From Somniosus microcephalus (taxonomy: Eukaryota), in NCBI GenBank assembly GCA_052327205.1, contig CM126222.1, positions 56,358,001-56,422,000 on the forward strand: a stretch of 64,000 nucleotides of DNA. The letters run 5' to 3'. This document shows positions 1 through 50,000 of the stretch, one piece after another. Under the pieces are notes generated by a model. That model ran no database searches. It saw nothing but the letters and a program-made list of their open reading frames with translations, and was not told the origin of the DNA. A program made the position numbers and the translations under genes. Every line of letters begins with the position of its first letter. Position 1 is the stretch's first letter.

Positions 1-154
1 GAGTTCTAACGGTTCCGTTGGCATCAAAGTCTTCTATTTCAAAAATTATCACTTGGTTTTGTGGAGATACAGGGATAGGATTATTTCCCCTAATAAAGCA
101 ATTGTTTGAATTTCCTAATAAAAAGACTTGGCCAATTCCGACAGGGTTTGCCAT
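1..154 (-). CDS. Putative gag-like ORF N-terminus (partial): MANPVGIGQVFLLGNSNNCFIRGNNPIPVSPQNQVIIFEIEDFDANGTVRT...
   Basis: GAAATGG Kozak-like start about 245 nt after the PBS; 51 open codons to the window edge; no recognised motif. Confidence 0.4.
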   Translation of the reverse strand, partial: MANPVGIGQVFLLGNSNNCFIRGNNPIPVSPQNQVIIFEIEDFDANGTVRT

Positions 155-398
155 TTCGTCAGGACCTAACCTCAGTTAGGGTTTAATATGAACTTTATAA
201 GAAATTGCTAGACTTCAATGGTATATTGAGGGAGTTCTGATTTAAGTTCTACAAGGCCTGATCAGGGACATGTCGTCTCTAGAGACTTAAATCTGGGTCT
301 TAGTACCACTGTCAGTAAAACACTCTTTCTATACTTAATCTACAAGATGGATATAGATATAAATGTAAGTATAGGTTCTGTATCAACTCATTAACACA

Positions 399-412
399 CA
401 CGTTGGGCGCCA
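399..412 (-). promoter_or_regulatory. Primer-binding site complementary to tRNA-Lys(CUU)/Lys1,2
   Basis: TGGCGCCCAACGTG equals the first 14 nt of the canonical TGGCGCCCAACGTGGGGC, 2 nt after a CA dinucleotide. Confidence 0.8.
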
Positions 413-951
413 ACTGAAGGGATAATTACTAGTCCTAGCCCCTTTCGGGCTACCCCAGATCAGGCGTATTCCCCAGATGTTCACATTCAACTAAAGTTAG
501 AGGTAGCCAAATCCTAAAGACGCTTAATTGGGTCTAAAGGTCCAGACTATCTCTTCCTAAAGGAAAAGAATGACCTGAAGATGTTACCGTACTCCAGATA
601 GCACTTTTAATAAGTTTAACTAGACTGTAACCTTCCGGGTATTATGAGGGTCCGGAAAACGCCCCCAGAATTCTGTAACCCCTCACCAAAGAGTGTACAG
701 AGATTGAGTTGGGTCTGGCCGTACTAACATACAGGCAACTGATATCTCAATCATTTCGAGCCGACATAGAAGATGAGAGAGAGAATGGGACCAGCATGGT
801 TCCCTAGGGATTCCTGCATAAAAGATAAAATTCCATTTATTGTGACCCAATGTTTGCAATCTCTGAGGAGATTATGTATCCAGTTCAGCAGCTCATCAAA
901 TGCCCCAAAAAAGGCCAGGTTCTTAAAGGGACCGCCTGTTAGGCTGCAACA

Positions 952-1348
952 GATAAAGTAAGTTTTTTAAATATACTTACCTGAACGTGTGCTCCTCACA
1001 ACCCCACATTTAAAGAGCGCAGGCTCTGCTGGATACCAATCGCCATCAGTCCCTCCCAATTACAGCCACTTTTTCTCAATCGCCACCGCTCCTCCCCCCA
1101 GCCACTGCTACCTTCCCACCTAATTGCCCCTTTTCCCAGTCGCCCCTCCTTATTTACCTGGGGTCGCAACGACACCAGCCACGGCCCAATCTTCGATCGT
1201 GCTTCGCTGGCGTCTATTGATCTCTGCAGCTCACCGGCTCAATGGAAATGAGGCCCGAGGCCCAATATCAGGCCCCCTTGGGCCTCAGCATTCAGGCACA
1301 GGGATTGATCGGCATGCCCATGGAGGGGTGTGCCTGAATTTCTAGGCC
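952..1348. mobile_element. Right portion of a Harbinger-type MITE
   Basis: Ends in CTGAATTTCTAGGCC (1334-1348), identical to TIRs at 35463 and 47398-47412. Confidence 0.55.
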
Positions 1349-1795
1349 AGACTTTTGGGAGGATGATATCTTCAAGTAAAAACTTTAACAAAAGCATTAA
1401 AAGACACAAAAGACAATGGACAAATGCAATCATGTTAATGTAACATATGTAATTTTTAAATCTTTTTTTGTTTAACTCCTTATTTTAGGTATTAGAAATT
1501 TCAATTACTGAGAAAAAATTGCAGCTGAACAAAAATTCAGAAAGCATTTTGAGAAATTTGTGGGAACCCAGTGGCCAGATTGTACAATGTACTCTATAAA
1601 ATAGCAACTGTTGTGTGTCACACACCATTAATATTGAAAATACCTATCACACCACAGGAGTAACAGATTACTATAATGAGTTTTCAATGAAACACGTGCT
1701 CCACATACCTAATTTAATATATAATTGATGCATAAGTGTTTGTTTGTATGTATCTATATAATCTTTAACTATTCCTTTTCTAGCCTTGATCCATC

Positions 1796-2006
1796 ATGGA
1801 TGCAGTTGCCTCAAGTGACAAGGAAATAAAGGATCTGGATGAGGAATCAATATGGGACCTGATCGAAAGCCAGCGCCACATAATCACCAACAAGGTCCGG
1901 CCCTGCCACATCACACCCTTTCTGCGTCAGTGCCATGTGATTGGGGAGACAGACGAGGAAGAAATTCTTTTTGCCCCTCACCTCAAACACCGATGTATGA
2001 GAACTG
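1796..2006 (+). CDS. CARD14: CARD14 coding exon 1 (CARD N-half), 211 nt
   Basis: Acceptor ttttctag ending 1783, ATG at 1796, [24 protein letters not shown] motif, donor gtaagt at 2007. Confidence 0.95.
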
Positions 2007-5000: not shown

Positions 5001-8000
5001 TCAAGTAAGCAAGTGATTTGGGGGGAAAGTTGTAACATTCAGTGTAGCTGGATACAATCCATCACGCTCACCTTATCCATTTTTAATGAAAAACTTTCAA
5101 AACATGCTTCAGCTGTGAAATTTTAGGGGCAGTGTCAGGTTTTACTTGCCAGCAATTGAGCTGAACTCCTTTTGCTGACTAATAAACAACTGGTTATGTT
5201 CTGCCCTGTAGGTAATGCCATTACAGTACCTGCTCTGATGGTACTCTCTCTTTCTCTCTCTCTCTCTTAGGCAGTCCCTCGGAACCGAGGATGACTTGCT
5301 TCCACACTAAAAATGAGTTCTCAGGTGACTGATGAGTCCAATGCGGGACCTACAGTCTCTGTCACTGTTGGGGTTGTCCGTGAGGGTCCTGACGTTCCAG
5401 GTCCCGAACTTCACTTTAAAGGGTGGAAGATGCCTGTGCGTGAATTCTTTTAACGTGGGGTGGCCGTTGCACACCAGCTACCACATGGGCTTGACAGAGC
5501 AAGGTCTTGGTCCAATGGCAAGGGGATCCAAGACGATTGGAGACCAGGCTCTGCTACATTGGCCTAGCACACGCACACACATACTCCTACTGTCCTCCTC
5601 CTTCCTTCCCGCAGGTCCTCTCTGCCTGGGTTTCATAGGCTATAACCCTGTAGTAACAAACCTAGGATCAAATTGCCTGCTCACTGCCTTGGCTAAGGAA
5701 TGAACATGGTCTAAAAAGGGTCCAAAGATTAAGAAAGCCAAAATTACTCCTCTTCCAAGGTACTGGCAGGGCTTCGTACACAAGCTCATACTGCCACCTG
5801 CAGATGCCTTGTGTTACTCCAGCATTTTAGAAAACATGCCTGCTCGTGGAAATCTTTCACTAGATTTGAATCTGTTCTCACAATAAATGCCGGTCCGTTA
5901 TGCACTATTTACAAATGTCTTCCCTGCTGGTTGGCAAAACTCTTGCAGCCTGAAGATGAGGGTACATTACTGATGGGCCAGATTAGTAAGCAGTTTATAA
6001 ATAACAACAGAAAATGCTGGAAACACTCAGCAGGTCAGGCAGCATCGAGCAGAGAGAAACAGAGTCAACATTTTGAGTTGGGGACCCTTCGTCAGAACTT
6101 GAACGTTAACTCTGTTTCTCTCTCCTCAGTGCTGCCTGGCCTGCTGAGTGTTTCCAGCATTTTCTGTTGTTATTTCAGATTTCCAGCATCTGCAGTATTT
6201 TGCTATTGTAAGCTGTTTCTAAAACTGCACCAACAACCTCTCTGCAGCCTTCTGCCTTGTACTTCTTTATAACAGTTGTCCCTTTTTAGAAAATGAAAAG
6301 ACTCAGTTTGGAATATTTAATGGTCACATTTGTTTTGAACATTTTCTCCCCTTTGCCCTGCTTCCTCTCCTGAAGGCATTAACTCTTGCTGAGGTACAGT
6401 TCCAAGTGGCCATTCTTCATGTGTCAGCCTGGACAGTGAGAGGCGGCAGGCTATTTGACTGGGTAGGGCCATATTACTGGGCCAAATTCTGCTCTCAGCC
6501 AGCATACACACACATCCACTTCTTAGCAGAAGCCACTGAATAGCAATCAGGAGTGGGAACTCCCAGCAGATTCTCCCTCCAATGAGACCAATTATAGCAT
6601 TCTTACTGCTGCCCTGGCTAAACTCCGCTAACTGGGAATCACATATAGACTAGGGGGAGTACGATAATACCAGCTTCTTAAGCTTAATTGCTTGGGGATG
6701 GAAGAAAATTGCCAGGAAAATGGAAGGAAAAAAACCCTAATTTTCGTACACATGGGATCTTTAAGCATCTGTTCTAGCGATCATACTTTAACAAGAATAA
6801 CTCTAATTTTGGTAATCTCTAGGTAATCTCTGTCACTTGTATTTACAAGTTTAAAACAAACACCAGTATATCCTTCCTCTCCTTTCTACACACTGCATGA
6901 ACAAACTCCCCTCAGTACTGCTTGGTTCCTTGTAACTAATTGTTCTGTCACAAAAGCTGATTTATAATCAGCTTTTCACAAGTGTGCTTATATTTACAAC
7001 CCATCTTGACGCAGTTGCAAAGCTTTATCTAGGTTACCTATAAGCACCTAAAGGCAACTTGTCCCTGCAGGGCAAGATTAAAATTATATTATGTTGGCTC
7101 ACCTGTGTAATAGTGATTATTTCCTATCAATACAGCTGTTTTCCTTGGATATATATAGGCTGGGGATTAAATACAGTTTTGTAGGTATTACAAGAAGGCT
7201 TTAATTTTTACAGTCAGTCCTCAGCCATCATGTGTACATTTTTTATAAGTACAACATTAACAAGTGCTGTAAGCAACACAAAATGAGGCAATACTGCAGT
7301 TGTCATAGCAAGTTGTAGACATCACAGCTAACGGTGAAGAGAAAATGTAAGCTGATTAAGAGAGCCTGATTCTTAGATGATAATCTTCATATTTCCAACT
7401 GCATTTGAGAAATCTATAAGTGTCGTCATCATTTGATTTGAGGTCTGCAAAGATCTTATTTCTTTGTCTTCAGTAGGGCCTGAGAACCAGTTCTTTTAAC
7501 CCATCCATATAGACTATTGGTCATATAGACATTCTGGTCATAGGGCTGCCAGTAGTTTTACAGTATATTGGTGAGAGGTACACAGCACAGTCATACACTA
7601 GTGTAAGGAGTTCTGACAGTAGACATTAAAGAAACAGCAATCAAAGTGACTCAGTTTACTTTCTTTTGTTGTAGTTGAAAAAGGAAATTTGGGTTTGATT
7701 CAGTTTCTAATGAATGAAGTGATGAAGTCTCAGAAATGGTTAGGAGAAGAGAAATGTCACAAACATCGGCTGCATGAGAAAGTTCGAAGCTTGGAAGAGC
7801 AAAACCAACAATTCAAGACTGAGCTCAAGAGTTTGAAGGCAGCTGAGGTTAACTTAAGCAGGATTAAAGTGGACTGGAACCGTCACCATGATGAAATGAT
7901 TCGTCTGAAGGAGGAAAATTATCAGATCTTAATGCGGTATACAAACACTCTGCAGGAGAAAGAAATGTCTGTGACACGGAGCAGAGAGTTACAACAACAG

Positions 8001-17000: not shown

Positions 17001-20000
17001 ATGGTTTCCTGGACCAATATGTTGAGGAACCAACTAGAGATCAGGCCATCTTAGACTGGGTATTATGTAATGAGAAAGGATTAATTAGCAATCTTGTTGT
17101 GCGAGGCCCCTTGGGGAGGAGCGATCATAATATGATAGAATTCCTCATTAAGATGGTGAGTGAAGTAGTTGACTCAGAGACTAGGGTCCTGAATTTAAAT
17201 AAAGGAAACTACGATGGTCTGAGGCGCGAGTTGGGTAGGATGGATTGGGGAACGTTACTTAAAGGGTTGACGGTGGATATGCAATGGCAAACATTTAAAG
17301 ATCGCATGGATGAACTACAGAATTTGTTCATCCTTGTTTGGCATAAAAATAAAACAAAAAAGGTGACTCAACTGTGGCTAACAAGGGAAATTAGGGACAG
17401 CATAAGACCCAAGGAGAGGACATATAAATTGGCCAGAAAAAGCAGCAAACCTGAGGATTGGGAGCAGTTTAGGATTCAGCAAAGGAGGACAAAGGGATTA
17501 ATTAAGAGGGGGGGAAATAGATTATGAGAGTAAGCTTGCAGGGAACATAAAAACTGACTGTAAAAGCTTCTATAGATATGTGAAGAGAAAAAGATTGGTG
17601 AAGTCAAGCGTAGGTCCCTTGCAGTCAGAATCAGGGGAATTTATAATGGGGAACAAAGAAATGGCAGACCAATTAAATACATACTTTAGTTCTGTCTTCA
17701 CAAAGGAGGACACAAATAACCCTCCAGAGATGTCGGGGAACATAGGGTCTAATGAGAGGGAGGAATTGAATGAAATCAGTATTTGTAGGGAAATGGTGTT
17801 AGGGAAATTGACAGCATTGAAGGCCAATAAATCCCCAAGGCCTGATAATCTACATCCTAGGGTACTTAAGGAAGTGACGCTAGAAATAGTAGATGCATTG
17901 CTGGTCATCATCCAAAATTCTATAGACTCTGGAATAGTTCCCATGGATTGGAGGTAGCTAATATAACATCACTATTTAAAAAAGGTGGCAGAGAGAAAAT
18001 GGGGAATTATAGACCGGTAAGCCTGACATCGGTAGTGGGGAAAATGCTAGAGTCCATTATAAAAGATGTAATAGCAGAGCATTTGGAAAACAGTGACAGG
18101 ATCGGACAAAGTCAACATGGATTTACAAAAGGTAAATCATGCTTGACTAATCTACTGGAATTTTTTGAGGATGTAACTGATAGACTAGATAAGGGAGAAG
18201 CAGTGGATGTGGTGTATTTGGACTTTCAGAAGGCTTTCGATAAGGTCCCGCATAAGAGATTGGCGTGCAAAGTTAAAGCACGTGATTGGGGGTCAGGTAC
18301 TGACTTGGATAGAGAACTGGTTGGCAGACAGGAAGCAGAGAGTTGGAATAAACGGGTCTTTTTCCGAGTGGCAGGCAGTGACTAGTGGGGTACCGCAGGG
18401 ATCGGTGCTAGGACCCCAGCTAGTCACAATATATATTAATGATCTAGACGAGGAAACTAGATGTAATATCTCCAAGTTTGCAGATGACGCAAAACTGGGT
18501 GGGCGTCTATGCTGTGAGGAGGATGCAGAGAAACTCCAGTATGATTTGGACAGGTTGGATGATTGGGCAGATGCATGGCAGATGCAGTATAATGTGGATA
18601 AATGCAAGGTTATCCACTTTGGTGGCAAAAACAGGAAGACAGATTATTATCTGTACGGCAATAGATTGGGAAAAGGGGAAGTACAACAAGACCTGGGTGT
18701 CCTTGTGCAACAGTCGCTGAAGGTAAGCATGCAGGTGCAGCAGGCGGTTAAGAAGGCAAATGGTATGTTGGCCTTCATAGCGAGAGGATTCGAGTACAGG
18801 AGCAAGGATGTCTTGCTGCAGTTGTACAGGGCCTTGGTGAGACCACACCTTGAGTATTGTGTGCAGTTTTGGTCGCCTTATCTGAGGAAGGATGTTCTTG
18901 CCATGGAGGGAGTGCAGCGAAGATTCACCAGACTGATACCTGGGATGGCAAGAATGGCGTATGAAGAGAGATTGGGTTGATTAGGCTTATATTCGCTAGA
19001 GTTTAGAAGAATGAGAAGGGATCTCATTGAAACTTATAAAATTCTAACAGGACTAGACAGACTAGATGCAGGAAGGATGTTCCCGATGGCGGGAGAGTCC
19101 AGAACCAGGGGTCACAGCCTAAGGATAAGGGGTAAGCCATTTAGGACTGAGATGAGGAGGAATTTCTTCAACAAGAGAGTGGTGAACCTGTGGAATTCTC
19201 TACCACAGAAGGCAATTGAGGCCAACTTATTAAATATATTCAAGAAGGAGTTAGATATATTTCTTACGGCGAAAGGGATCAAGGGATATGGGGAGAATGC
19301 AGGGACAGAGTACTGAATTTGGATGATCAGCCATGATCTCATTAAATGGCGGAACAGGCTCGAGGGGCCGAATGGCCTACTCCTGTTCCTATCTTCTATG
19401 TTTCTATGATGTAATTATACAGCTCCTTGACTAACACCAATTTTGGAACAACCATGAACACCTCTGATCGTGGCAGGCTAATGATGAGAGCAATGTTGCA
19501 GTGTGTAGTAAATACTTGTTTCTTATTTTTCTACAGGCATATGGGGCCAGGGATGAGGCCCAATTGCAAATTAGCAAAATGATCATAGACAAGGATTCAT
19601 GTCGTCGGCAAGTTATTGAACTACAGGACATGTGCCGTGAGCTGAATAAGGAAATGCTGCAGTTAAGATTAAACAGGGACAGGCAGGAGGTAGGGCAATT
19701 TTTCAGTCCTTGTTCAAAAACAACAGGCTGGGATTTTCATTGTCACCCGATGAGGTGGACAGAGATCATGTCTGATGTCTAAAACAACACGACTGTCTAA
19801 AAATATAAGGACTGATTTTTCCTGACTCGTGTCCCCAGGTATTACGCAGTTTCTCAGGCGCAAAGGTCAGGAAAAAGGGATGGAGAGCTGGGCAACCACC
19901 CTTTTCGCGTTGCCCGGGGATTTCCAGGGTTTTGCAGGGGGTACAGAGCCTGGCCTGCAGCTCCAGTAGGTGCAGGCCCGTCTGAGCCAAATAAGGCTGC

Positions 20001-29000: not shown

Positions 29001-32000
29001 AGCTAAGGCCACTCTCCTGGGACTACGCCTCAGCACTCCTACAGCTCTGCGCGAGAACAGCAGGACTAATGTAATGTGAAGCTTTGGAAGCCCCCGTCAA
29101 CACTGGCCCCTGTAATGTATGTACCTTTAAGGGGAGAACTACTTTTTACAGCTCCTGTATACTGTAGTACCGGCAGTGACCACACCTGTATATAAACCCT
29201 GAGTAGTGATCTGTACAATTAGTTCTAGAGTAACCCTCATTCAGTAAACACCTGTTGAATCGTTCCCTGCAGTCTTGTTGTCTAATTATTGAAGGACACA
29301 ACATCAAGATACACGGATCTAACATTGGCGATGAGCAGATTCGAACCTACCTGTAACTCTGCATCACCTCCCAGGGATTCGCTCCTGGAGAACAGTGGAA
29401 GGAGGTCGAGTCCAGAAGCACGGGCGTCGACCACGGGCAACCGCCCAGTCATCCAGCGGAGATTTGAGCATCGCAGGGGAGGCTGTCGAGAGCCAGGCTT
29501 GGCTTTCCAGTCACGGTGGTCCAGCGAAACGGGCTGGCAACAGGTACTGCGCAGACCCTTCCCGGACAGCGGCAGCTAGAGCCGACCGAGCGGCATAGAA
29601 AAAGGCGGAGCAGCATCGACGGGGGAGAGAGAGAGGGTAGAGCGCACAGGGCGCAGCCGGTGTTCAGGACCCAGCGGCGTCAACGGGGGAGAGAGGTGAG
29701 AGAGAGCAGAGCGCAGCCGGTGTTCAAGGGCCGAGCAGCGTCAGCGGGGAAGAAAGGAAAGCGCGGGAGACGCCATTTTAAGCCGCAGCGGGGAAGAAAG
29801 GAAAGCGCAGAAGACACCATTTTAAGCCAGTCTAACCACACCCAAAAATGCCGAAGAGTGGCAGTATCACAGCGTTCGACAATGAAGTCGAAGATTGGAC
29901 GACATATGTCGAACGCATAGAAGTATACTGCAAGGTGAATGAAGTGCCAGATGACAAGAAAGCGCAGGTATTGTTGAATTCAATGGGTGCAAAAACGTAT
30001 GGCTTACTACGAAACCTAGTAACCCCAGAGAAGCCAGTAGAAAAGGATTTTGAAAACATAGTGTCAATCCTACAGGACCACTTAAACCCCACACCGCTGC
30101 TGATAGCAGAAAGATTTAAGTTTCACAAAAGGAACCAGCATAAAGATGAAAGTAATGCTGAGTGTTTAATGGAACTGCGCAAGCTATCGAAACACTGCCA
30201 GTTTGGAACGGGACTAGCAGATACTTTAAGGGACAAGTTTGCGTGTGGGCTTCAAAGTGAAGGAACCAGAAACGGCTTCTATCCGAAAAGGATCTTACGC
30301 TGGACAAGGCTTTCAGCATTGCAGTATCACACGAAGCAGCAGCACGGGGCGCAGCAGAGATACAACGGAGACCGCAAGAATATGGCACAAATGAAATGTC
30401 ATACGGAACAGTGAAGTGCTTTCGCTGCGGCAGAACAACACACGACCATAATGATTGCTGGTTCAAGGACAAAGTGTGCAGACAGTGTGGAAAAGTAGGA
30501 CACATAGCAAGAGTCTGCAGGTCGGGAAAGAAAACCAGCAGCAAGAAATCTCTACAGGAGAAGTACCAGAAGGTACATAAGGTGACGGAGAGCAGTTCAG
30601 ATGAACAGAAAATTGATACAGACTCCGGAAGCAAGGAGCTGGGTTGTCTGAAACTACATAATGTGATCAAAACGGAGGATCACCAAACTATCTGGGTCAC
30701 GCTCAAGATAGCAGGAGTCCAAGTGAAAATGGAATTGGACACAGGATCAGCCCTAACAGTCATAAACCGAAGGGACTACAAGCAGCTATTCTCACATATA
30801 CCCTTGAGAGATACAAAGATTGTCTTGAAGACGTACACGGGGCAAAAAGTCTACCCCAAAGGAAAAATAAGGGTGAACGTTATATATAACGGCAAGGAAA
30901 CACCAAAAATGGACCTATATGTATTGCCAGATGGAGGACCACCACTACTAGGACGTGAATGGATCCGGAAGATACAGCTAGATTGGCATTCCATACAAGC
31001 ACTGACTGTAGATGCCAAAAAGGATGACGACGTCACACCTGGACGACTGTCAAAAATGCTAACTGACGCACAAGAAGTGTTCCAGCAGGGACTCGGAACA
31101 CTAAAAGGCATAACAGCAATGATCAAAATAGAGGAAAATGCAAGCCCAAAGTTTTTTAAGGCCAGACCGGTACCTGATGCGATCCGCCCAGCCGTCGAAG
31201 CAGAGCTGGAAGGTTTGGAACGCTCAGGAGTACTGTCCAAAGTGGACTGGAGCGAGTGGGCTATACCCATCGTTCCTGTAATGAAGAGGTCGTTGAGTAA
31301 TACGCCTGGGGAACCAAAGAAGGTTCGCATCTGTGGGGACTTTAAGGTGACAGTGAACCCAGTCCTTCACGCGGTACAATATCCGCTTCCGCGGATTGAA
31401 GATATTTTCGCCTCGCTATCTGGAGGGAAACGCTTCACTAAGATTGATCTGGCCCAGGCGTACCTGCAAATGGAGGTAGAAGAAGCCTCAAAACAGTACC
31501 TCACGATCAACACTCATAAAGGTCTCTACCAATACAACCGGCTGGTGTTCGGGGTAGCATCAGCTCCGGCTATTTGGCAAAGGGCAATGGAACAAGTCCT
31601 GCAAGGGATTCCAGGGACCCAGTGTTATTTGGACGACATCCTGGTCACGGGCGAAAATGACAGTGATCACCTCGCCAACCTGGAGCAGGTGCTCACTAGA
31701 TTGAAGGAATATGGGCTCTGAGCTAATTGCCACAAATGCGAGTTTTTCCAGAAGCAGATCTTGTATTGTGGCCACGTTATTGATAAAGAGGGGTTACATA
31801 AGTCCCCTGAAAAGATTGAGGCAGTAGTCAAGGCTCCAGCACCGGAAAATGTGTCACAACTGAGGTCGTTCCTCGGGCTGGTGAACTACTACCATAAGTT
31901 CTTGCCGAATTTGTCTACCGTACTACACCCACTGAACACCCTACTGCAAACGGGGGTACCATGGAAGTGGAGTGACGAATGTAAACGAGCTTTCCAGAAG

Positions 32001-35000
32001 AGCAAAGAATTGATCACATCAAAAGAGGTGTTGGCTCATTTCAACCCAGCACTACCAATTCGGTTGGCGTGTGATGCATCACCCTATGGCATTGGAGCGG
32101 TGCTGTCGCACAAATTCCCGGACGGCTCGGAGAGGCCAGTAGCCTTTGCATCTCAGTCACTAACCTCAGCCGAGTGTAACTACGCCCAGATTGACAGGGA
32201 GGCCCTCAGCCTAGTGTGGGGAGTGAAAAAGTTCAATCACTATCTGCACGGGCAGAAGTTCACCTTGCTGACTGACCACCAACCATTTGTCTCCATCTTT
32301 AATCCAAAGAAGGGCGTTCCGGTGATGACTGCGCAATGGCCACAAAGATGGTCCCTTTTTCTAGGGGCGCACCAATATGAAATCGAGTATAAGGGCACGA
32401 AACAGCATGGAAACGCTGATGGGCTATCACGCCTGCCACTGCCTACTGCGGAGGAAGCACCAGCAGTGGATCCTGTCGAAATATTTCATTCGACTATAAT
32501 TGAATGCTTGCCAGTAACTAACGCTGGTATAGAGAAGGAGACCCGAAATGACCCGACACTGTCTCGGGTATATGATTTGACGGTGAAGGGATGGCCAGCA
32601 CATGGCGACTCACTGTTGCCAGCATTCTCACCCAGAAGAGAACAGCTGTCAGTATGCCAGGGGACCTTGATGTGTGGATCCCGAGTGGTAATTCCACCCA
32701 AGTTAAGGGAGAGAGTGCTCAATGAGCTTCATGAAGGTCATCTGGGAGGGGTGAAAATGAAAAGCCTTGCTAGGGCTTATGTGTGGTGGCCGGGGATCGA
32801 TCAGCAAATCGAGGACCTGACAAAGAGCTGCTCAGGATGCCAGAAGATCCAAAATGCACCACCACATGCCCCTCTACACCCATGGGAGTGGCCCTCATCT
32901 CCATGGCAACGGGTGCATATTGATTTTGCTGGTCCATTCATGGACTCAATGTTTTTAATAGCCGTGGATGCGCACTCGAAATGGCCTGAGGTGATCAAAA
33001 TGTCCTCCACCACCACGGAGAAAACTATTGCAGTCCTACGGACCATTTTTGCCAGGAACGGCTTGCCAGAGCAGATTTGCTCTGATAATGGACCACAGTT
33101 TGTGTCCGAAGAGTTTCGAAGATTTATGAAAAGGAATGGGGTAAGGCATTACACATCCACCCCGTATCATCCAGCCACAAATGGATTGGCTGAGAGGTTC
33201 GTACAAACCTTTAAGAAGGCAATAAAGGCTATGTACAATGACAACATTCCACTGCAGCACAAGGTGGACAATTTCCTGTTCACCTACCGGAATGCGACAC
33301 ATGCAGTCACCAACCAGGCCCCGGCCATGATGTTCTTTAACCGAAGGTTGAGATCTCGTCTGGATTTGCTCAGACCAAATGTACGAAGAGATGTTGAGAA
33401 TAAGCAATTCCAGCACATCAATGAGAAGCCGACAAGGAGCTTCAATGTAGGGCAACCAGTCTTGGCCCGCGACTACCGAACAGAGAAATGGCAACCAGGA
33501 ACGATATGCACACGGCAGGGGCCACTAATTTACACAGTGGATGTTGGGGAGAACATTGTGAGACGCCATGCTGACCAGATCCTAGAGTCACAGGAACGAG
33601 TCAACCCCATGTCTCGGCCATACGTACCTGGTGAGGAACCCGACATACAGGTCGCATCTACCTCAGAAACAATAGCATTGGAAGCTGATGAATCAACTGA
33701 CGACAGGGTGTTAGAATCGCCTCCGCACCAAGAGCGAGACACTCGGGAAAGGCGTTATCCAGAAAGAATCAGGAAGCCTCCCCAAAGACTGAATTTATAA
33801 ATAGACTATTTTCAGTTAATGTTGCATGTTAAAAGTGTTAATTGTAATTAGTTTGATATTTAATTGTTAAGAGTGTTATGGTACTGTTAATCTAAAAGGG
33901 GAGGAATTGTAATGTATGTACCTTTAAGGGGAGAACTACTTTTTACAGCTCCTGTATACTGTAGTACCGGCAGTGACCACACCTGTATATAAACCCTGAG
34001 TAGTGATCTGTATAGTTAGTTCTAGAGTAACCCTCATTCAGTAAACACCTGTTGAATCATTCCCTGCAGTCTTGTTGTCTAATTATTGAAGGACACAACA
34101 TCAAGATACACAGATCTAACAGCCCCCAGAGCTAAGATGGCGGCTGTCTGATCCTCCATGGCAGTAGTGTAAGCTGCTATGGAAGCTGTCAGCAGAGGCC
34201 CCACTGTCATGTTTATGGAGCTGATCACTCACTCCATGTTGGACAGAATAATCTCCATGCTCTGTGCGAAGACCTGGCACAAGGTGGAGCCGGACTCCTC
34301 CATACCCTGAGCCATTGCGTGCAAGCTCATTGGCAGCTACCCAGTGCATCTAGCATTTCCCGGTGCATGCCCATCAGTCTTCTTTATTAGCCTGGGCCCT
34401 TGAAGTCTGCATCTGTTCTCGGCAGCAGAGCTAGCGTGTGATCTCGCCCTCTGGCGAGCTGGCACCTGTGGTGTTCTATTCCCTGCCCTAGGTCCTGCAC
34501 ACTTGTGGCCAGTGATTCACCATCCTCTAGCCTAGCTTCTAAGGTATGCCTGGTGCCAATCTCTCAACTGGTACATGCTCGGGTCAGCTGAAGCGACACT
34601 ACATCTTCAGGAAGCCTGGCCTCCATTTCCTGTAGTGTCACAGGGGGCACAACATTTTCAGCACCTGAAATGAAAGAGAGGGACGAAAATTAGGTTTTAG
34701 TTGAAGGGAAAGCAGGGAGAGATGAATAGATGCTGAAAGCAGCTGTAGTTTGTCAAGGAGTGTGTAGGGTGACATAGAAGTAGGAATAGAAAAAGAGGAT
34801 AAGGTCTGAAGAAACCCTGCATGACATCTCCTTCAGCATTGCCACACGCCACGGCCACGACTCTCCTCCTGCCCGCGATGGCCAGTATGTTTTCTTCCAC
34901 AGGGAAAGGATGTGCAGGCATGCTTGACCTCCTCCAGTCATGGCCCCCTGTCATATGTTGTGCAAAAGACCTCCTCCTGCAAGAAAGAAGGGAGTGTTTT

Positions 35001-41000: not shown

Positions 41001-44000
41001 GTACTGTTGTTGTGATTTTGTTATTTCAATTTGAATAGTGAGAAGATTATTAGGGTTGCTCGTTAATTGAGTTATTGCAGCGAGCAGTGTAGGAAAGTGG
41101 AATTATTGTCAGTTAATCCACTCTGCTCAGTAACTTTTCCAAACCACGGTTTCTAGTGACGTTATCAGCTGGTTAAATGAAAACATTCACAAAATTATTA
41201 GAATGAAACAAAAGAGTGTTTGAATTAATCGCAATTCTCCATAACATTGCTTGTATAAGAGAATCCAGATGGTAAAACACTTCAAAAGTATGAATTCCAG
41301 TTACTTTTTTGTCTCCAGTAAATTATCACATTGCTGTGCTGTGGAATTATAACAGAATAAATTCATAAACTAAACCGCCCATATATTTAATTTGGTGTTT
41401 AAAAATAACATTTTTGAATTTTGATGTGACAGTGAAGGTGATATTTGGTTGGGGGAAAGGAACTAATAATAATCAATATTTTCTATCTGGAATACCTTTT
41501 CGCTGACTGTGGAACAAGGTTGGTGCCAGTCTTGGAGATAGCATTTACAGCCGGGAGTAGTTTGTCAGCTAAAAGAGGCCATGTGGAGGGGAATGGCAGT
41601 ATAAAAGCTGGAAATAGAAACATAATGACGATATTGGAAAAATAAGACCTTCAGTGCAGTGTTTGTGTATTTTTTAACAAACGTTACTCATCCAGATTGC
41701 TGAAATTTAAATCTGTACTACAGCAATGTAAAAGACTCCGGAGCAGAGATGGATTGGGAAGAAAGAAAATCACAAGTTTAAGTCTAGGATTTGACTGGCA
41801 TTGTATGTTGGTCCCATGCATTTCAAAATGACCACCACCCTCCCTGAATCATTTTCATAGTTTTTATTTAACCCCAGCCATTAAACTATTTCTTCCAACA
41901 CCAGCCACATCAAACTCGATTTTGCTCTATGAATTTACAGGCTATGGGGAATTAAAATGGGGACAAATGGGATGTTTTCACCATATTTATGGGACCATAT
42001 AGTTCAAATAAGTGATTTGTTGGGGCAAGTGAATTGTTTCCACTCGGAAACCATCCTATTCATGGCTGTCTTGACCTTTTAAGCAAAATTCCGGCACTTG
42101 GGCAACAAATTACACTACATGTGGTAAGTACGCAAATTCACATAAGAACATAAGAAATAGGAGCAGGAATAGGCCACTAGGCCCCTCGAGCCTGCTCCGC
42201 CATTCAATAAGACCATGGCTGACCTTGGGCTCAAAGCCACTTCCCCACCCGCTCCCCATAACCCTTCGCTCCCTTATCTTGCAAAAATCTGTCTATCTCC
42301 ACCTTAAATGTCTCTGGGGCAGAGAATTCCACAGATTTACAACCCTCTGAGAGAGGAAATTCCTCCTCATCTCAGTTCTAAAATGGCGACCCTTTATTCT
42401 AAAACTGTGCCCCCGAGTTCTAGATTTCCCCATGAGGGGGAACATCCTCTCTGCATCTACCTTGTTGAGCCCCCTGAGTATTTTACATGTTTCAATAAGA
42501 TCACCTCTCATTCTTCTAAATTCCAATGAGTATAGGCCCAGCCTGCTCAACCTTTCCTTATAAGTCAACCCCCTCAGCTCTGGAATTAACCTAGTGAATC
42601 GTCTCTGTACTGCCTCCAATGCAAGTATATCCTTCCTTAAATAAGGAGACCAGAACTGTACGCAGTACTCAAGGTGTGGTCTCACCAATACCCTGTACAG
42701 TTGTAGCAGAACTTCCCTGCTTTTATACTCCAACCCCCTTGAAATAAAGGCCAACATACCATTTGCCTTTTTGATTACTTGCTGTACCTGCATGCTAACT
42801 TTTTGTGTTTCATGCACAAGGACCCCCAGGTCCCTCTGAACTGTAGCATTTTGTAACCTCTCTCCATTTAAATAATAATTTGCTTTTTTATTTTTCCTGC
42901 CAAAGTGTATAACCTCGCACTTTCCCACATTATACTCCATCTGCCAAATGTTTGCCCACTCACTTAGCCTGTCTATGTCCCTTTGCAGATTCTTTGAGTC
43001 CTCTGCACAACTTGTTTTCCCACCCATCTTTGTATCATCTGCAAACTTGGCTACATTACACTCGGTTCCTTCATCCAAGTCATTAATGTAGCTTGTAAAT
43101 AGTTGAGGCCCCAACACCGATCCCTGTGGCACCCCACTAGTTACCGTTTGCCAATCGGAAAATGACCCATTTATCCCGACTCTCTGTTTTCTGTTAGTTA
43201 GCCAATTCTCTATCCATGCTAAAATATTACCCCCAATTCCGTGAGCTCTTATCTTATGCAGTAACCTTTTATGTAGCACCTTATCGAATGCCTTCTGGAA
43301 ATCCAAATGCACCACATCCACTGGCTCACCCTTATCCACCCTGCTCGTTACATCCTCAAAGAACTCCAGCAAATTTGTTAACCATGATTTCCCTTTCATA
43401 AAACCATGCTGACTCTGCTTGACTGCATTATGATTTTCCAAATGCCCTGCTACTGCTTCCTTAATGAAGGACTCCAGCATTTTCCCAATGACAGATGTTG
43501 GGCTAACTGGTCTATAGTTTCCTGCTTTCTGTCTCCCTCCTTTCTTAAATAGGGGTGTTACATTTGCGGTTTTCCAATCCGCTGGGACCTCTCCAGAGTC
43601 CAGGGAATTTTGGTATATTGCAACCAATGCATCCACTATCTCTGCAGCCACTTCTTTTAAGACCCTGGGATGGAGGCCATCTGGTCCAGGGGACTCGTCA
43701 TCTTTTAGTCCCATTATTTTACCAAGTACTATTTTCTTAGTGATAGTGATTGTCTTTAGTTCCCCCCTCCCTGTGGCCCCTTCATTATCCATTATTGGAA
43801 TGTTGTTAGTGTCTTCTACTGTGGAGACAGATACAAAATATTTGATCAGAGTCTCTGCCATTTCCCCATTCCCCATTATTAATTCCCCAGTCTCATCCTC
43901 CAAGGGACCAATGTTTACTTTAGCTACCCTCTTCCTTTTTATATACCTGTAGAAGCTCTTACTATCTGTTTTAATGTTTCTTGCCAGTTTACTCTCATAA

Positions 44001-47000
44001 TTCATCTCTCTATTATGTTTTTAGTCATCCTTTGCTGGTTTTTAAAAATTTCCCAATCCTCTGGTCTCCCACCAATCTTGGCAACATTAGAAACATAGAA
44101 GATAGGAGCAGGAGTAGGCCATTCAGCCCTTCGAGCCTGCTCCGCCATTCAACGAGATCATGGCTGATCATCCAAACCCTAGCACCCAGTCCCTACACTG
44201 ACAGCCATCCCACCCAAGCCCTATCCCCGTAACTCTGTAACCCCACGTATTTTAATCACCCCTAACACTAAGGGCCAATTTTTATCATGGCCAATCAACC
44301 TAACCCGCATATCTTTGGACTGTGGGAGGAAACCGGAGCACCCGGAGAAAACCCACGCAAACACGGGGAGAATGTGCAAACTCCACACAGACAGTCACCC
44401 GAGGCCGGATTTGAACCCGGGTCCCTGGTGCTGTGAGGCAACAGTGCTAACCACTATGCCACCATGCTGCCCACGTATGGCATAGTGGTTATTGTATGCC
44501 TTCATTTTCAATTTGATACCATCCTTTACTTCCTTAGTTAACCATGGATGGTGCTCCCTTCTCTTAAAATCTTTCTTTCTCACTGGAATATATTTTTGTT
44601 GAGACTTATGAAATATCTCCTTAAATGTCCACCACTGCATTTCAACTGTCTTACCCTTTAATTTATTTTTCCAGTCCACTTTAGCCAGTTCTGCCCTCAT
44701 GCCATTGTAATTGCCTTTGTTTAAGATCAGGACACTGGTTTGAAATACAACTTTCTCACCCTCCAACTGAATTTGAAATTCAACCATGCTATGATCACTC
44801 TTTCCTAGAGAATCCTTTACTTATGAGATCATTTATTAATTCTATCTCATTACACAGTACCAGATTCAAGATAGCCTGCTCCCTGGTTGGTTCCATTACA
44901 TACTGTTCTAGGAAACCATCCCGGATACACTCTATGTGCTCCCCAAGGCTACCATGGCCAATTTGATTTGTCCAATCAATATGGAGATTAAAATCACCCA
45001 TGATTATTACCGTACCTTTTTTACAGGCCTCCATTATTTGTTGATTTATACTCTGTCCAACAGTATTGTTACTGTTCGGGGGTCTGTAGACTATGCCCAC
45101 CAGAGACTTTTTCCCTTTATTATTTTTTATCTCCACCCAAATCAATTCTACATCTTGATCTTCTGAGCCAATATCACTTCCCACCACTGCACTGATCCCA
45201 TCCTTTACCAACAAAGCCACCCCCCTCCCTTTCCTTTCTGTCTATCCTTCTGAATTGTCAAATACCCTGGAATATTCAGTTCCCAGCCCTGATCACCTTG
45301 CAACCATGTCTCTGTAATGGCGATCAGATCATATCTATTTGTGCCGTCAACTCATCGATCTTGTTAGGAATGCTGCGTGCATTCAGATATAGAGCGTTTA
45401 ACTTTTATCTTTTTGCCATTTCTCACAGGATCTTATGCCACACCAAATTATTTGTTCTAATTATGTTTTTTTCTCCAGACAGAAAAAATTAGAAATATAT
45501 GACAGTGAATCAGGAATATCTAAATATTAGTCCTGCATGTTCTGGTACATGTTGAAGACGGTGTTGCTTAAATTTCATACTTTATTTGATCTGAAGTATT
45601 TATTTTTCTTCTAATACAATATTGCTTGAAGTATCACAGTTAAATTTAGTTAAAAATGTTAAACCTCTTGTGATTTTGTATCTTCGGTTAAACGTCTATG
45701 TTGAAGTTAAGCTGTGGTCTAAGAAAGCAAGCCAACCCAGAATATATGTTGTGTTGTGCTTTATTTAATCAGTTTACCAAACATTGGTGGAAAATATTGA
45801 GAAGAAGATTGTTACCTCTGGTGATTCATTCTACATCCGAGTCAATGTAACATTTGATAAGGAAAGTGGAGCCCTGGGTGGATTTACTGTCCAATGCAAT
45901 GAAATCCTGCATGTCACTGACACCGTGCACAGAGGCAGTAGTGAGTGGAGAACATTCAGAGTGAATCCCAACACAATGGTTGACAAGGACGGTGGTACTA
46001 TTCCAAATTACTACCGGTAAGCATGTAACATTGATGATACTCTCGGTACTGGCAAACCAGTCTTTGTGATCTGAACCACAGTAAATGTGTTTTATTTAGA
46101 GCATTGCAGCATTTGTGGCAAATTTTTAAAATGCTGAAAATCATTTTTATACACATCACGTTTGCAAATTTTGGTGTCTTACTAGCTGGTCGCTGGGAGT
46201 TGTGCAAATATGGCCTGCGATAACTATGCTCCTGGTTTTTGCCTCCTCTGATGAAGTGATGTTGAGCCAATGTCAGACATCCCCTGCTGCCTCCCTTCTA
46301 GGAAAATCAAGTCTGTGCTCCTGCACTCAGTGACACTGTGCATTAATGCTCTAAAGTATTGGACGATTTAACATGTTTTGCTGCAAGAAACGTTTGTGTT
46401 TGCCCTTTGAATATCTCTGACTTGTGTCCCTGGTGGGTCTGGTTCTGCACAGGGAGGGCCAAAGCGCAACATTTCCCCTTATATTTATTTTTATTCCATT
46501 TTTTTCTAGTAATTATTTTCCCTTTGTCTCATACATTAGCATCCCATAAGAGAACAGTTATGCTCATTTTGTAATCGGCTGCTAGGAGGTGAATTACTCA
46601 GGTTGACTCACACACTAATTCTTCTTATTCTCTGTATAAGATCGGGGACTTAGCCTGTGAGGAATGATGCTGTGAATCTGGCTCCCATTACTCTGAAATA
46701 GTGCTTTAAGACTGTGGCCTAGAAATTCAGTGGCCTGCGCCACCAGTTTGCGCCCAAAGAGGGCTTTTGCGCCACTGTGCAAACCTACCGCGATATTTAG
46801 TGGGGCGCTAATGGCGGCGTTAGCCAGTAGCGCTGCGCCGCCACCGATGACGTCATCGGTGTGCGCAGCGCCCCGCTATCACCCCGCTGGCCATATTTAG
46901 TCGCTGCCGCCTCCCCCGCGCCGGCTGCAAACAGCGACCGGTACACGGGGCCTACCTGTGCCGGTAGTGGGGCGAGTTAAGGTGGAGGTGCGGCCGGCCG

Positions 47001-50000
47001 CTTTTTCGGCGGCCGCCTGCCCGTACCTCCGTCCCCGGCCTCCTACACCCGCCCCCCCCCCCCCCGCGGCATTGCCGGCTGTTTCCAGAGAGCCCGGCAC
47101 TTCTCCTTGGTGCCGGGTTCATTTGCCGGCACTCGCGAGCGGGGATCGCGCTGTTGCAGGCACCTCCCCCTTAAGAGTGAGAGGAAGGCCTGCAGTACCG
47201 CAGGCTGCCGTGCCGCAGCGGGTGGCGCTGCGGCACTTTGCACGCCGATATTCAGTTTCAGCGCCCCAAGTGGGGCGCCGAAACCCTTGTTTAGCGGCCG
47301 GCTTCCACTTGGGGCGCTGAAACTGAATATCCCGCTGGCGCAAGTGGCTCCGCGCGCAGCGGTAATTCCGGCGCCCAGGCGAGCTGGGCGCCCCTAACTG
47401 AATTTCTAGGCCTGTCTTCCTTGACTTAGGGTTTCCGAATTTACTGATGAGATTATATCATATACTGCATGGCCTGGGGACATCGAAAGCTTAAACCTGA
47501 CCTAGTCTACAAGCCAACCAACCTGTTTCTGCACCCCAGCACCCAACTGCATTGGTCAGGTGCCAAAGCTATAAAAGTGTTAAATAAAGCTTGCCCAATG
47601 GTTCAGTTGGTAAAACCAACATATAACTGAACCATACAGACCAGAAGGTTCTTTGTTTAATTATTACTCTGTACTGAGTTAACTAATTTCTTCCAGGTGG
47701 CACTTGCAGCATTACAGTTAGCCTCAGTAATCTTGGGCTTATTAATTTAAATACTGAAGTCAATACGTTGTGGAAAAACTAGAATGACTTTGAATGGACT
47801 ACATAAGTTTAAAAAATGATGCACCCTCTCTAAACCATCTTTGTAGTATTAGTTACCCCAATGCTGTTGGGAACCACACAGATTGAAAAGTCCCAGGTTC
47901 AATTCCTGACCTATGCTGAGTTAGTTCATTTCAGTCAGGCGTGCTGCAATTGGCCTCAGCTAAGGAGGGGGAAATCATGCAGGATTCCTGCTTCTGAAGA
48001 AACTTATTTATCAATATTCTGTCAGCTAAAGATGTAAGTGTGAGTGTCTTGTTTCTGTTTAGGGCTCAGCAGCTGTTGATTGGGATGATTCAGAACATGG
48101 CTCGACAGATTCCATCAATTAAAAAGGTGAAATGTAATATACTAATCAAAGATAATTTTAAAAGGGCCTTCACCAGTACAATGGTGAGATTTTATCAGCA
48201 AAGAGTGTAAGATAGATTGGAACAATAGCAAAATACTGCGGATGCTGGAAATCTGAAATAACAACAGCAAGTGCTGGAAACACTCAGCAGGTCAGGCAGC
48301 ATCGAGGAGAGAGAAACAGAGTTAACGTTTCAGGTTGAACCGAAACGTTGACTGTTTCTCTCTCCTCGATGCTGCCTGACCTGCTGAGTGTTTCCAAGAT
48401 AGATTGGAAACCCATTAATAATTCACACAATAATAAAACAGTTCCTGTTCTTCTGATGCAGTTCGGTTTGTATGTTATGTTCTTTATACTGAGACTCAGC
48501 TCCATAATCTGGGCCCAGTGTATGGATTGGATGGAGCTGCCTGCGTTACAGTGCTGGATTTCAGCAGGGCAGTTCCACAGCTGTACTTAGAAGTGCTACT
48601 TCACACAATGCATGTTTTTTTTTGCATATATGGTGGGTAAAACAGATGGGCATTGGTACAGGGAAGATGTGATATAGAGTATATGTGATTGAATCAACCT
48701 TCTCCTGAGCTTGGCCTTTTAAAATAAATAAATAAATAAATAACACCTATGATGCATGTACAATCATATTTAATTCAACCTCCAAACGGCTGCATTACAA
48801 GCCATAGGTCTCGGTGTAAAAAGCATATTAATTATATGAACTAGGAAAATTATGCCACGCTGCACCACTGGGGCTGGAATACTAGAAGCTGAGGACTGAG
48901 AGAAGCTGTGCTGGTGACTGAGGAGCAGTGTTTGTCTCACGTCTCTTGGTGGCATACATGTTCCATACATATACATATGTACATAACATTGTGCAGTGTA
49001 AGTGAGGCAGATGCCTTACTGGCTTAACTGTTTACTTAAGTCATTTCACCCATTTAATATATACAATAATTCATCACATGAATCATTTAACTCATTAAAA
49101 ATATAGATACATTACTTGCTGTGTTTCAGGTCAGGTGTCATGCCTACTCTTTCCTAATACTCTGTGCCGTGCTTGTTTTTCCAGCGAGATCGGAAATCAA
49201 CTTCTTCAAGTCAAAATAAACTTGTGCGCATAGTCAGCACTGATAAAAGTCAGAGAAATCCACTCTGGTTATCATTCGACTGTGGCACCATCAATCCCGA
49301 CAAAGAACAAGGTAAGAATCGGCTGTCACAGACTAAAGTAGATCTCTTATCATAACAGGTTGTGACCATTTCATTTATAATGGCCCATAATTTGCGGTCA
49401 GCGGCGAAGCAAAGGCGTTTGCCGCTGGCCCCGAAGTAAGCGTCCCACAAAGATCTCGCGATCTCTGTAGTGAGAAGTTCAGCTTTTCCGAAGCGTAATT
49501 GAAATCGACGCAAGTTAATGGGGAATCCCTAACACGAGCTGCTGTGACGTCATCAAGCTGTCTAAGCAGCCAATCACAATGCAGAATTTTCACAGACAGC
49601 GAACCAGGTAGTGGGTAAGCTCCTTTAAATGGCTAGAAATTTGGCTCCTTTGCGCCTGCCATTAGTGGTGCTAATGGGGCACAAAGAGCCTATCGCCTGG
49701 GGGGGGGGGGGGGGGGGGCGAAAAAAGTGCCTCCTGAGAAATTTGGCGGGGCATTGCTGAGGCACTACCCGATAGCAGTGTGCTTCCACCAGAAGCGCCC
49801 CAGGCCACTGCGCTACTGGCAATGACGTCATTGCCGTGCACTGCAACCCCTTAGCGCCCCGCTGCGGCCCCTTACCGCCCCGCGGTAGAAATTCAGCTGC
49901 GTCCCGCGAGGCTGTCGCGGGCGATGTCAGCACCAGCCTCGCGAACCGGGCCGACCTCCGCTCACTGGGTGGTATTTAAAGGGGAGGTGCGGCTGTGACC

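Follow-up and report, generated by a model that had tools for sequence, protein, structure and literature searches.

A high-copy shark LTR retroelement family, possibly foamy-like, represented by an incomplete copy antisense to CARD14

Introduction

Foamy viruses carry a splice donor upstream of the poly(A) signal, an order that is described as unique to them in the consulted portion of PMC3694450. Their fossils are termed extremely rare in the accessible part of a review that also reminds us that unrelated endogenous retroviruses (ERVs) can share primer sites (PMC8922424). RT grouping in clade Tu, a Gag without a Cys-His box, a separate pol frame, env, an internal promoter and accessory genes further mark the foamy group, and excerpts of PMC5210030 add a GGGTG border between polypurine tract and LTR, a 4-nt target-site duplication and a long LTR. 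Most teleost foamy-like ERVs are primed by tRNA-Lys according to the same excerpts, and this mostly holds for the fish and amphibian elements AciFLERV, AliFLERV and NviFLERV as far as the available text of PMC5512871 and PMC5210030 extends. From cartilaginous fish, the consulted text of PMC5512871 has CmiFLERV, which is known from pol only, and the part of PMC10699275 at hand describes ERV-Spuma.0-Sca of the small-spotted catshark, with a Lys-type primer site and 293 elements. ERVs related to snakehead and epsilon viruses are reported from the elephant shark in the accessible sections of PMC4422223.

The locus considered here lies at the start of a 64,000-nt stretch of DNA, analysed as a whole and referred to below as the window. 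A preliminary description had presented positions 1–951 as the 5′ end of a possibly foamy-like ERV on the - strand, inserted in a MITE ahead of CARD14. A literature search found no description of the LTR family in question. Wang, Chen and Cui reportedly described an endogenous foamy virus of cartilaginous fish in 2023; this report, known by its title, may cover the family, and its element could be identical with it.

Methods

The window covers the 5′ end of the element only; any RT, env, second LTR and 3′ end would lie beyond its edge, and none of these, nor a target-site duplication, was seen within it. Four of 24 runs were mapped onto positions 1–2100 at 85 % likeness, these being contigs of organisms B, C and D (runs X3, X4 and X7) and RNA reads of organism A (run X21, ~24 % read). 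Individual contigs cited are among those listed in the part of the mapping tables consulted. A scan for CA-NN followed by the 14-nt primer site yielded 45 loci: 14 foamy-type, eight beta-type and five lenti-type, labels that we presume from their Gag starts, two further retroviral loci (L027, and L051, which belongs to the 3′ end of one of the records above), and 16 that were set aside as non-retroviral. One foamy-type record, L046, was confirmed as such by Pfam Gag_spuma_N.

Results

The element lies antisense to CARD14

The CARD14 protein of Heterodontus francisci maps to 20 stretches of the + strand, from 1796 to 62498, at 61–100 % identity, and the window thus corresponds in essence to a shark CARD14 gene. 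The exon at 1796–2005 matches 18 of 31 candidate proteins, all from cartilaginous fish, with 17 named CARD14 and one CARD11-like; the closest is that of H. francisci (99 % identity over 70 aa). A splice acceptor AG ends at 1783 and is preceded by a pyrimidine tract. Alignments of two ray isoforms begin at 1784 with extra sequence upstream, which indicates an upstream exon in these relatives and makes it likely that the LTR element sits in a 5′-UTR intron, as was first supposed. The element is on the - strand and thus antisense to CARD14, ahead of its coding start, and protein matches confirm the identity of the gene that had been named. The CARD14 exon has no depth in RNA run X21 (~24 % of the run), a figure that says nothing about the 5′ UTR.

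One copy of an abundant family, lacking part of its LTR

At position 415, 163 contigs of X3, 301 of X4 and 92 of X7 depart from the sequence of the window, as do 55 RNA reads, and more leave at 413–414. The flanks beyond 415 disagree with each other (agreement 0.33–0.42) and are therefore unrelated, which fixes the U5 end at this position and reveals hundreds of insertion sites in public shark contigs. A repeat that is scattered in this way, always breaking off sharply at CA into differing flanks, is an LTR retroelement. Bins 421–700 are deeper than bins 71–350 by approximately 21, 24 and 46 times in the three contig runs (depth is no copy number), an LTR excess as expected of many solo LTRs; the leader has a depth in the thousands in the same runs.

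At the opposite end, 40, 46, 19 and 65 records share letters past 710 (agreement 0.75–0.89) that differ from those of the window, so that the family LTR is longer than the LTR of the present copy. Family sequence in the window stops here, and bins 771–910 are at single-copy depth in all three contig runs, refuting the view that the element reaches 951; an LTR start at that position is likewise ruled out by contig mapping. The short piece that follows the break is matched by neither other family copies nor the flank from organism C. For organism B, one contig spans 681–1263 without any difference and stops where shared 31-mers start. For organism C, a 714-nt contig matches 733–983, with its remaining 463 nt mapping nowhere on the window; this appears to be an empty site, as seen in one contig only. 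No TATA box occurs in 611–760, and the promoter (U3) of the present copy has probably been lost. The element is, in short, one genomic copy from an abundant shark LTR family, with part of its LTR missing (Table 1). Its LTR end, primer site and multi-copy family bear out the original reading of a 5′ end of an LTR element on the - strand.

Table 1. Positions of the LTR element, its parts and its surroundings within the window
Feature	Position	Strand	Basis
First long frame from an ATG, 51 codons up to the window edge	2..154	-	Translation; multi-copy
Leader, 244 nt	155..398	-	Sequence, contig depth
tRNA-Lys1,2 primer-binding site, 14 nt perfect	399..412	-	Motif scan, record comparison
Spacer GT, 2 nt, between LTR end and primer site	413..414	-	Sequence
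Retained part of 5′ LTR, probably R-U5, ending CA at 415	415..710	-	Contig flanks, end of shared sequence
Putative U5 hairpin, 6-bp stem, 5-nt loop	436..452	-	Folding
Likely poly(A) signal (ATTAAA), 197 nt ahead of LTR end	606..611	-	Sequence
Candidate splice-donor motif TTG|GTGAG, cut 687/686	681..689	-	76 nt upstream of poly(A) signal
Junction piece, 23 nt, beginning TG at 733; LTR tip or filler	711..733	-	X3 contig 681–1263, X4 contig 733–983
Single-copy host DNA, non-LTR	734..910	.	Depth 19, 12 and 5–8 in bins 771–910
MITE-type sequence, right terminal repeat 1334–1348; left limit approximate	911..1348	.	Mapping, repeat match
First coding exon of CARD14	1784..2006	+	Acceptor AG 1782–1783, ATG 1796

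In RNA run X21, 461 reads map on 1–2100 but none is at least 99 % identical, and the reads hence come from other family copies. Reads pile up at 419 and 684, with nine molecules at each. Across 1–350 there are few leader or frame reads (depth 0.2–2.8), whose first mate is always on the - strand; LTR reads are on both strands. One X3 contig jumps from 118 to 443 and thus represents a deleted family copy in which 324 nt, including the primer site, are missing.

Primer site and leader

Read on the - strand, the LTR ends in CA (416–415), followed by GT and TGGCGCCCAACGTG (412–399). This primer motif has no second match in the window even when two mismatches are allowed, and with ~0.0002 exact matches expected it is far beyond chance; the CA, the 2-nt spacer and the Lys1,2 site that the preliminary description singled out are present, as is its ATTAAA at 611–606. 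An LTR ending CA followed by a primer site of 8–18 nt is common to all LTR elements. Pairing extends over 14 consecutive nt and 15 of 18 overall, the 4 nt after the primer core harbouring three differences from the 18-nt form. The leader, first given as about 245 nt, measures 244 nt between primer site and ATG 154, the latter standing 258 nt from the start of the primer site. Within it are two very short ATG-initiated frames (2 and 9 codons), and a 6-bp hairpin at 180–165 lies directly ahead of ATG 154. The hairpin suggested before the LTR end does fold, with a 6-bp stem at 452–436, but its region shows no excess of structure over shuffles (z -1.26 and z -1.15).

The traits first put forward for a foamy affinity, namely Lys1,2 priming, a 2-nt spacer and a Gag without Gly2, are not diagnostic, and the last would apply only if the first frame, which lacks Gly2, is Gag. 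Site and spacer occur together in 14 foamy-type, eight betaretrovirus-type and five lentivirus-type records, and all five of the last also lack Gly2 and so combine the three traits. Conversely, Gly2 is present in 2 of 14 foamy-type Gags. The spacer is 2 nt in 29 of 34 Pro- or Lys3-primed loci, and a Gypsy element at 59101 of the window has CA, 2 nt and TGG as well. All 27 Lys1,2 records pair over 18 nt, against 14 nt in the window, where a full 18-nt primer site is absent. The LTR ends TTCA, an ending common among Pro-primed loci, whereas ACA closes the LTR in all 14 foamy-type loci. At the nucleotide level, nothing in the LTR resembles foamy R-U5.

Locus L027 (10,207 nt), which we take to be an amphibian epsilon-related ERV, possesses a pair of related ORFs (109 and 132 aa) at 1328–2088, ahead of a Gag-like frame; the one that was scanned gave no Pfam match. 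Scanning DNA for the LTR end joined to the primer site returned one viral and seven metagenome matches, all of them chance matches of 19–22 nt. A scan for His-type primer sites yielded seven loci.

A splice donor ahead of the poly(A) signal

The candidate donor TTG|GTGAG stands 273 nt before the LTR end, and the sole GGTRAG within 1–760 is located inside the LTR. The arrangement was expressed as a layout test, in which a poly(A) hexamer lies 150–200 nt before the LTR end and a GGTRAG donor 40–150 nt upstream of the hexamer. With these ranges, which were chosen after the data had been seen, the window and all 14 foamy-type loci pass. Among other retroviral loci, of which many records are short and start at R, none of 48 does so (0/8 beta, 0/5 lenti, 0/1 for L027 and 0/34 Pro- or Lys3-primed loci). 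One of them, L072, has a hexamer 150–200 nt from the end but no donor, and L014 fails on donor spacing. Both Gypsy LTRs of the window fail.

By chance, the layout arises in 16 of 5000 dinucleotide shuffles and in 14 of 3390 genomic windows; among the 177 shuffles that have a hexamer in range, 16 also have a donor (~9 %). The hexamer distance of 197 nt falls outside the foamy range of 153–186 nt, and gamma-type loci mostly have 96–98 nt. The class I pattern of a short U5 with a donor downstream of the primer site was not found. At the level of motifs, the donor-before-poly(A) layout thus provides a moderate argument in favour of a foamy reading.

The first long frame

An ATG at 154 opens a frame without Gly2, as had been noted; it begins MANPV and runs for 51 codons to the window edge. 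It is likely that gag begins here, or else that the frame is an accessory ORF preceding it. The ATG is flanked by a purine at -3 and by G at +4. Shuffles of 1–398 give an ATG frame of such length in 406 of 5000 cases. Three listed long contigs that lie mostly over the frame (X3 45–189, X4 2–189 and X4 42–206) show 10–14 % substitutions and no gaps, and the listed LTR contigs are likewise mostly gap-free.

Pfam gave no match to the 51-aa peptide, with neither a Gag nor a zinc knuckle in the 51 residues visible (the positive control L046 matched), and PDB gave none. Five matches were obtained among 1.84 billion representative proteins, of which the two inspected are repeat proteins; there were no longer homologues and none of near length. 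An Atlas search returned no match, with low recognition. The predicted fold is of low confidence (pLDDT 52.6), and with it a BFVD structure search had no match at E 0.001. For so short a peptide, blank protein searches are weak evidence.

A foamy Gag profile scores -0.8 bits, a value equalled or exceeded by 600 of 2000 shuffles, and 744 of 3000 shuffles are as good in a start-anchored alignment with foamy Gag. A likeness to foamy Gag seen by eye was rejected, as only L011 of 33 records beat 300 shuffles and the group test failed. Similarly, a by-eye likeness to the L027 ORFs did not hold, with 445–1046 of 3000 shuffles as good. No Gag_spuma_N-type domain was found in the 51 residues; fish foamy-like Gags often escape similarity, as stated in the consulted part of PMC5512871.

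Neighbouring repeats

A MITE-type terminal repeat at 1334–1348 recurs in an intact element near 46716–47412, and high-copy patches are found at about 911–990 and 1191–1400. The proposed insertion of the element in a MITE is unproven, as about 200 nt of single-copy DNA separates the LTR from the first high-copy patch, and the partner repeat is absent from 1–1330 and from the window; it may lie beyond the provirus. In two X3 contigs the LTR end directly adjoins MITE-type sequence (948–415 and 1272–415), which places further copies of the LTR inside members of the same MITE family. Between the MITE and the CARD14 exon, a medium-copy repeat occupies 1370–1750, with many internal deletions among its copies.

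Further repeats lie deeper within the window. A Gypsy-type element at 29111–34121 (+), in a CARD14 intron, has LTRs 98 % identical, a 5-nt duplication (GCCCC), a 1-nt spacer and a pol split by a single stop at 31719–31721. In a second, at 54643–59325 (-), both LTRs appear to begin TA and not TG, the duplication is CCCAA and the 3′ LTR exceeds the 5′ one by ~24 nt. A LINE-type RT frame of 575 aa is situated at 42293–44020 (-), and a second copy, 70 % identical and in opposite orientation, at 17449–19408 (+); both are presumably CR1-like. At 5999–6175 and 48275–48396, short repeat ends stand head to head as near-perfect palindromes, with arms of 74 and 45 nt.

Discussion

Comparison with described systems

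The 14 mammalian foamy virus records resemble the window in their Lys1,2 site, 2-nt spacer, long U5 and donor upstream of the poly(A) signal; a TTGGT donor core (11 of 14) and a Met-Ala start (12 of 14) are also held in common. They differ in their 18-nt primer match (14 nt in the window), in an LTR end of ACA in place of TTCA, and in leaders of 77–115 nt, as opposed to 258 nt. There is no Gag or nucleotide similarity to the window, whose family is of very high copy number. Fish and amphibian foamy-like ERVs, compared with the window by their descriptions, resemble it in their mostly Lys-based priming and differ in their spacers of 0–2 nt. In the available portion of PMC5512871, the fish and newt elements have, by eye, leaders of roughly 300–380 nt, near the 258 nt of the window, the AliFLERV LTR ends TTCA as in the window, and newt primer sites are imperfect.

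ERV-Spuma.0-Sca resembles the present family in its shark host, Lys-type site and abundance. Unlike the window element, it has, by eye and within the accessible part of PMC10699275, no spacer, a different LTR end and a repeat-rich leader of 670 nt. Six short motifs were tried against its LTR as given there, and none match except the primer core; on this visual comparison it is a different family. Ty3/Gypsy elements, among them the pair in introns of CARD14, are alike in an LTR ending CA, a short primer match, a 1–2 nt spacer and copy number. The two intronic elements have no sequence match to the LTR element, use other tRNA primers and carry LTRs of ~216–245 nt without the donor/poly(A) layout, in agreement with the initial statement that it is unrelated to these Mag-like elements.

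Alternative readings

Taken together, we put the chance that the element is the 5′ end of a foamy-like (spuma-clade) ERV at about even, much as the preliminary description implied, though on account of the donor/poly(A) layout and not of the traits it named. As two tested features are absent and the RT is outside the window, the element is not filed under Spumaretrovirinae. It might instead be an ordinary Ty3/Gypsy LTR retrotransposon, primed by tRNA-Lys and without env, in which the layout arose by chance. The very high copy number suits this explanation, as do the presence of two Gypsy-type elements in CARD14, one with an equal 2-nt spacer, and the frequency with which shuffles that already hold the hexamer supply a donor. 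ERVs, by contrast, more typically combine a high LTR-to-internal ratio with an LTR of >296 nt, as found here. The Gypsy LTRs of the window, moreover, fail the layout and end ACA, and no Gag or zinc-knuckle match emerged from the 51 residues visible. The 14-nt match, for its part, fits the 8–18 nt of retrotransposons, and Lys priming is known in Ty3/gypsy clades according to the available text of PMC13524379. On balance, a Ty3/Gypsy origin is rather unlikely.

Less probable still is an ERV of another class, be it epsilon/gamma-like (class I), snakehead-like or loki-like, with a first frame that may be an accessory ORF before gag. A class I Gag would start with a myristoylated matrix (Gly2); the frame seen here has no Gly2 but could, as in L027, precede gag. 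L027 offers a precedent, with its CA, 2 nt, Lys1,2 site and paired ORFs before a Gag-like frame, and TTCA ends are frequent in Pro-primed loci; however, the layout is absent from all 48 non-foamy loci, and the peptide is unlike the L027 ORFs. The epsilon- and snakehead-related ERVs of the elephant shark (PMC4422223, as far as consulted) speak for such an assignment, whilst the lokiretrovirus paper has no sharks or cartilaginous fish in the consulted portion of its main text (PMC7947760). A final possibility, which overlaps the others and which we regard as distinctly improbable, is a non-autonomous LTR element or a chance frame, whereby LTR and primer site are real and the 51 codons are non-coding. 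The ease with which shuffles produce an equal frame, the lack of a homologue in four protein searches and the low pLDDT agree with this, but the strong start context does not, and nor do the three gap-free contigs over the frame, although LTR contigs are mostly gap-free too.

A possible history of the present copy

Should the foamy-like reading hold, the parent element would, by analogy with retroviral biology, have primed reverse transcription with tRNA-Lys1,2 and entered the germ line by integration, with many solo LTRs as the result. Going by the layout, Gag would begin at ATG 154, and the 5′ poly(A) signal would be kept silent, as it is in foamy viruses, by U1 snRNP bound at the R donor. 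The U3 region could have been deleted once the element had integrated, with only a 23-nt tip of the LTR (TG at 733) left in place. Alternatively, a LINE enzyme may have copied viral RNA, such that the copy begins in R, with filler bases at the junction. LINE enzymes can generate retrocopies in this manner, with junction filler. On foamy geometry the break at 710 is near the start of R, and LINE RT frames are present in the window. As most of the promoter region appears to be missing, the present copy is likely unable to transcribe itself.

More broadly, there may be an undescribed foamy-like lineage whose LTR copies number in the hundreds or thousands in several sharks, with a Gag unlike known proteins and a retained donor-before-poly(A) order; we advance this tentatively, as a doubtful rather than a probable outcome. 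The present copy might then be a LINE-made retrocopy of RNA from such a lineage.

Significance

Given that LTR elements and foamy-like ERVs have already been reported in sharks, a single locus is of modest importance, and it is valuable chiefly for giving access to a large family missed by protein searches. If its RT groups with foamy viruses, this would be an unusually abundant foamy-like ERV, the many natural copies of which could test whether R-region poly(A) control dates to jawed vertebrates. The insertion, apparently present under some organism labels and absent under another, could be of use as a phylogenetic marker. If true, the reading as an undescribed foamy-like lineage with a retained donor-before-poly(A) order would extend U1-dependent poly(A) control to a retrovirus of cartilaginous fish.
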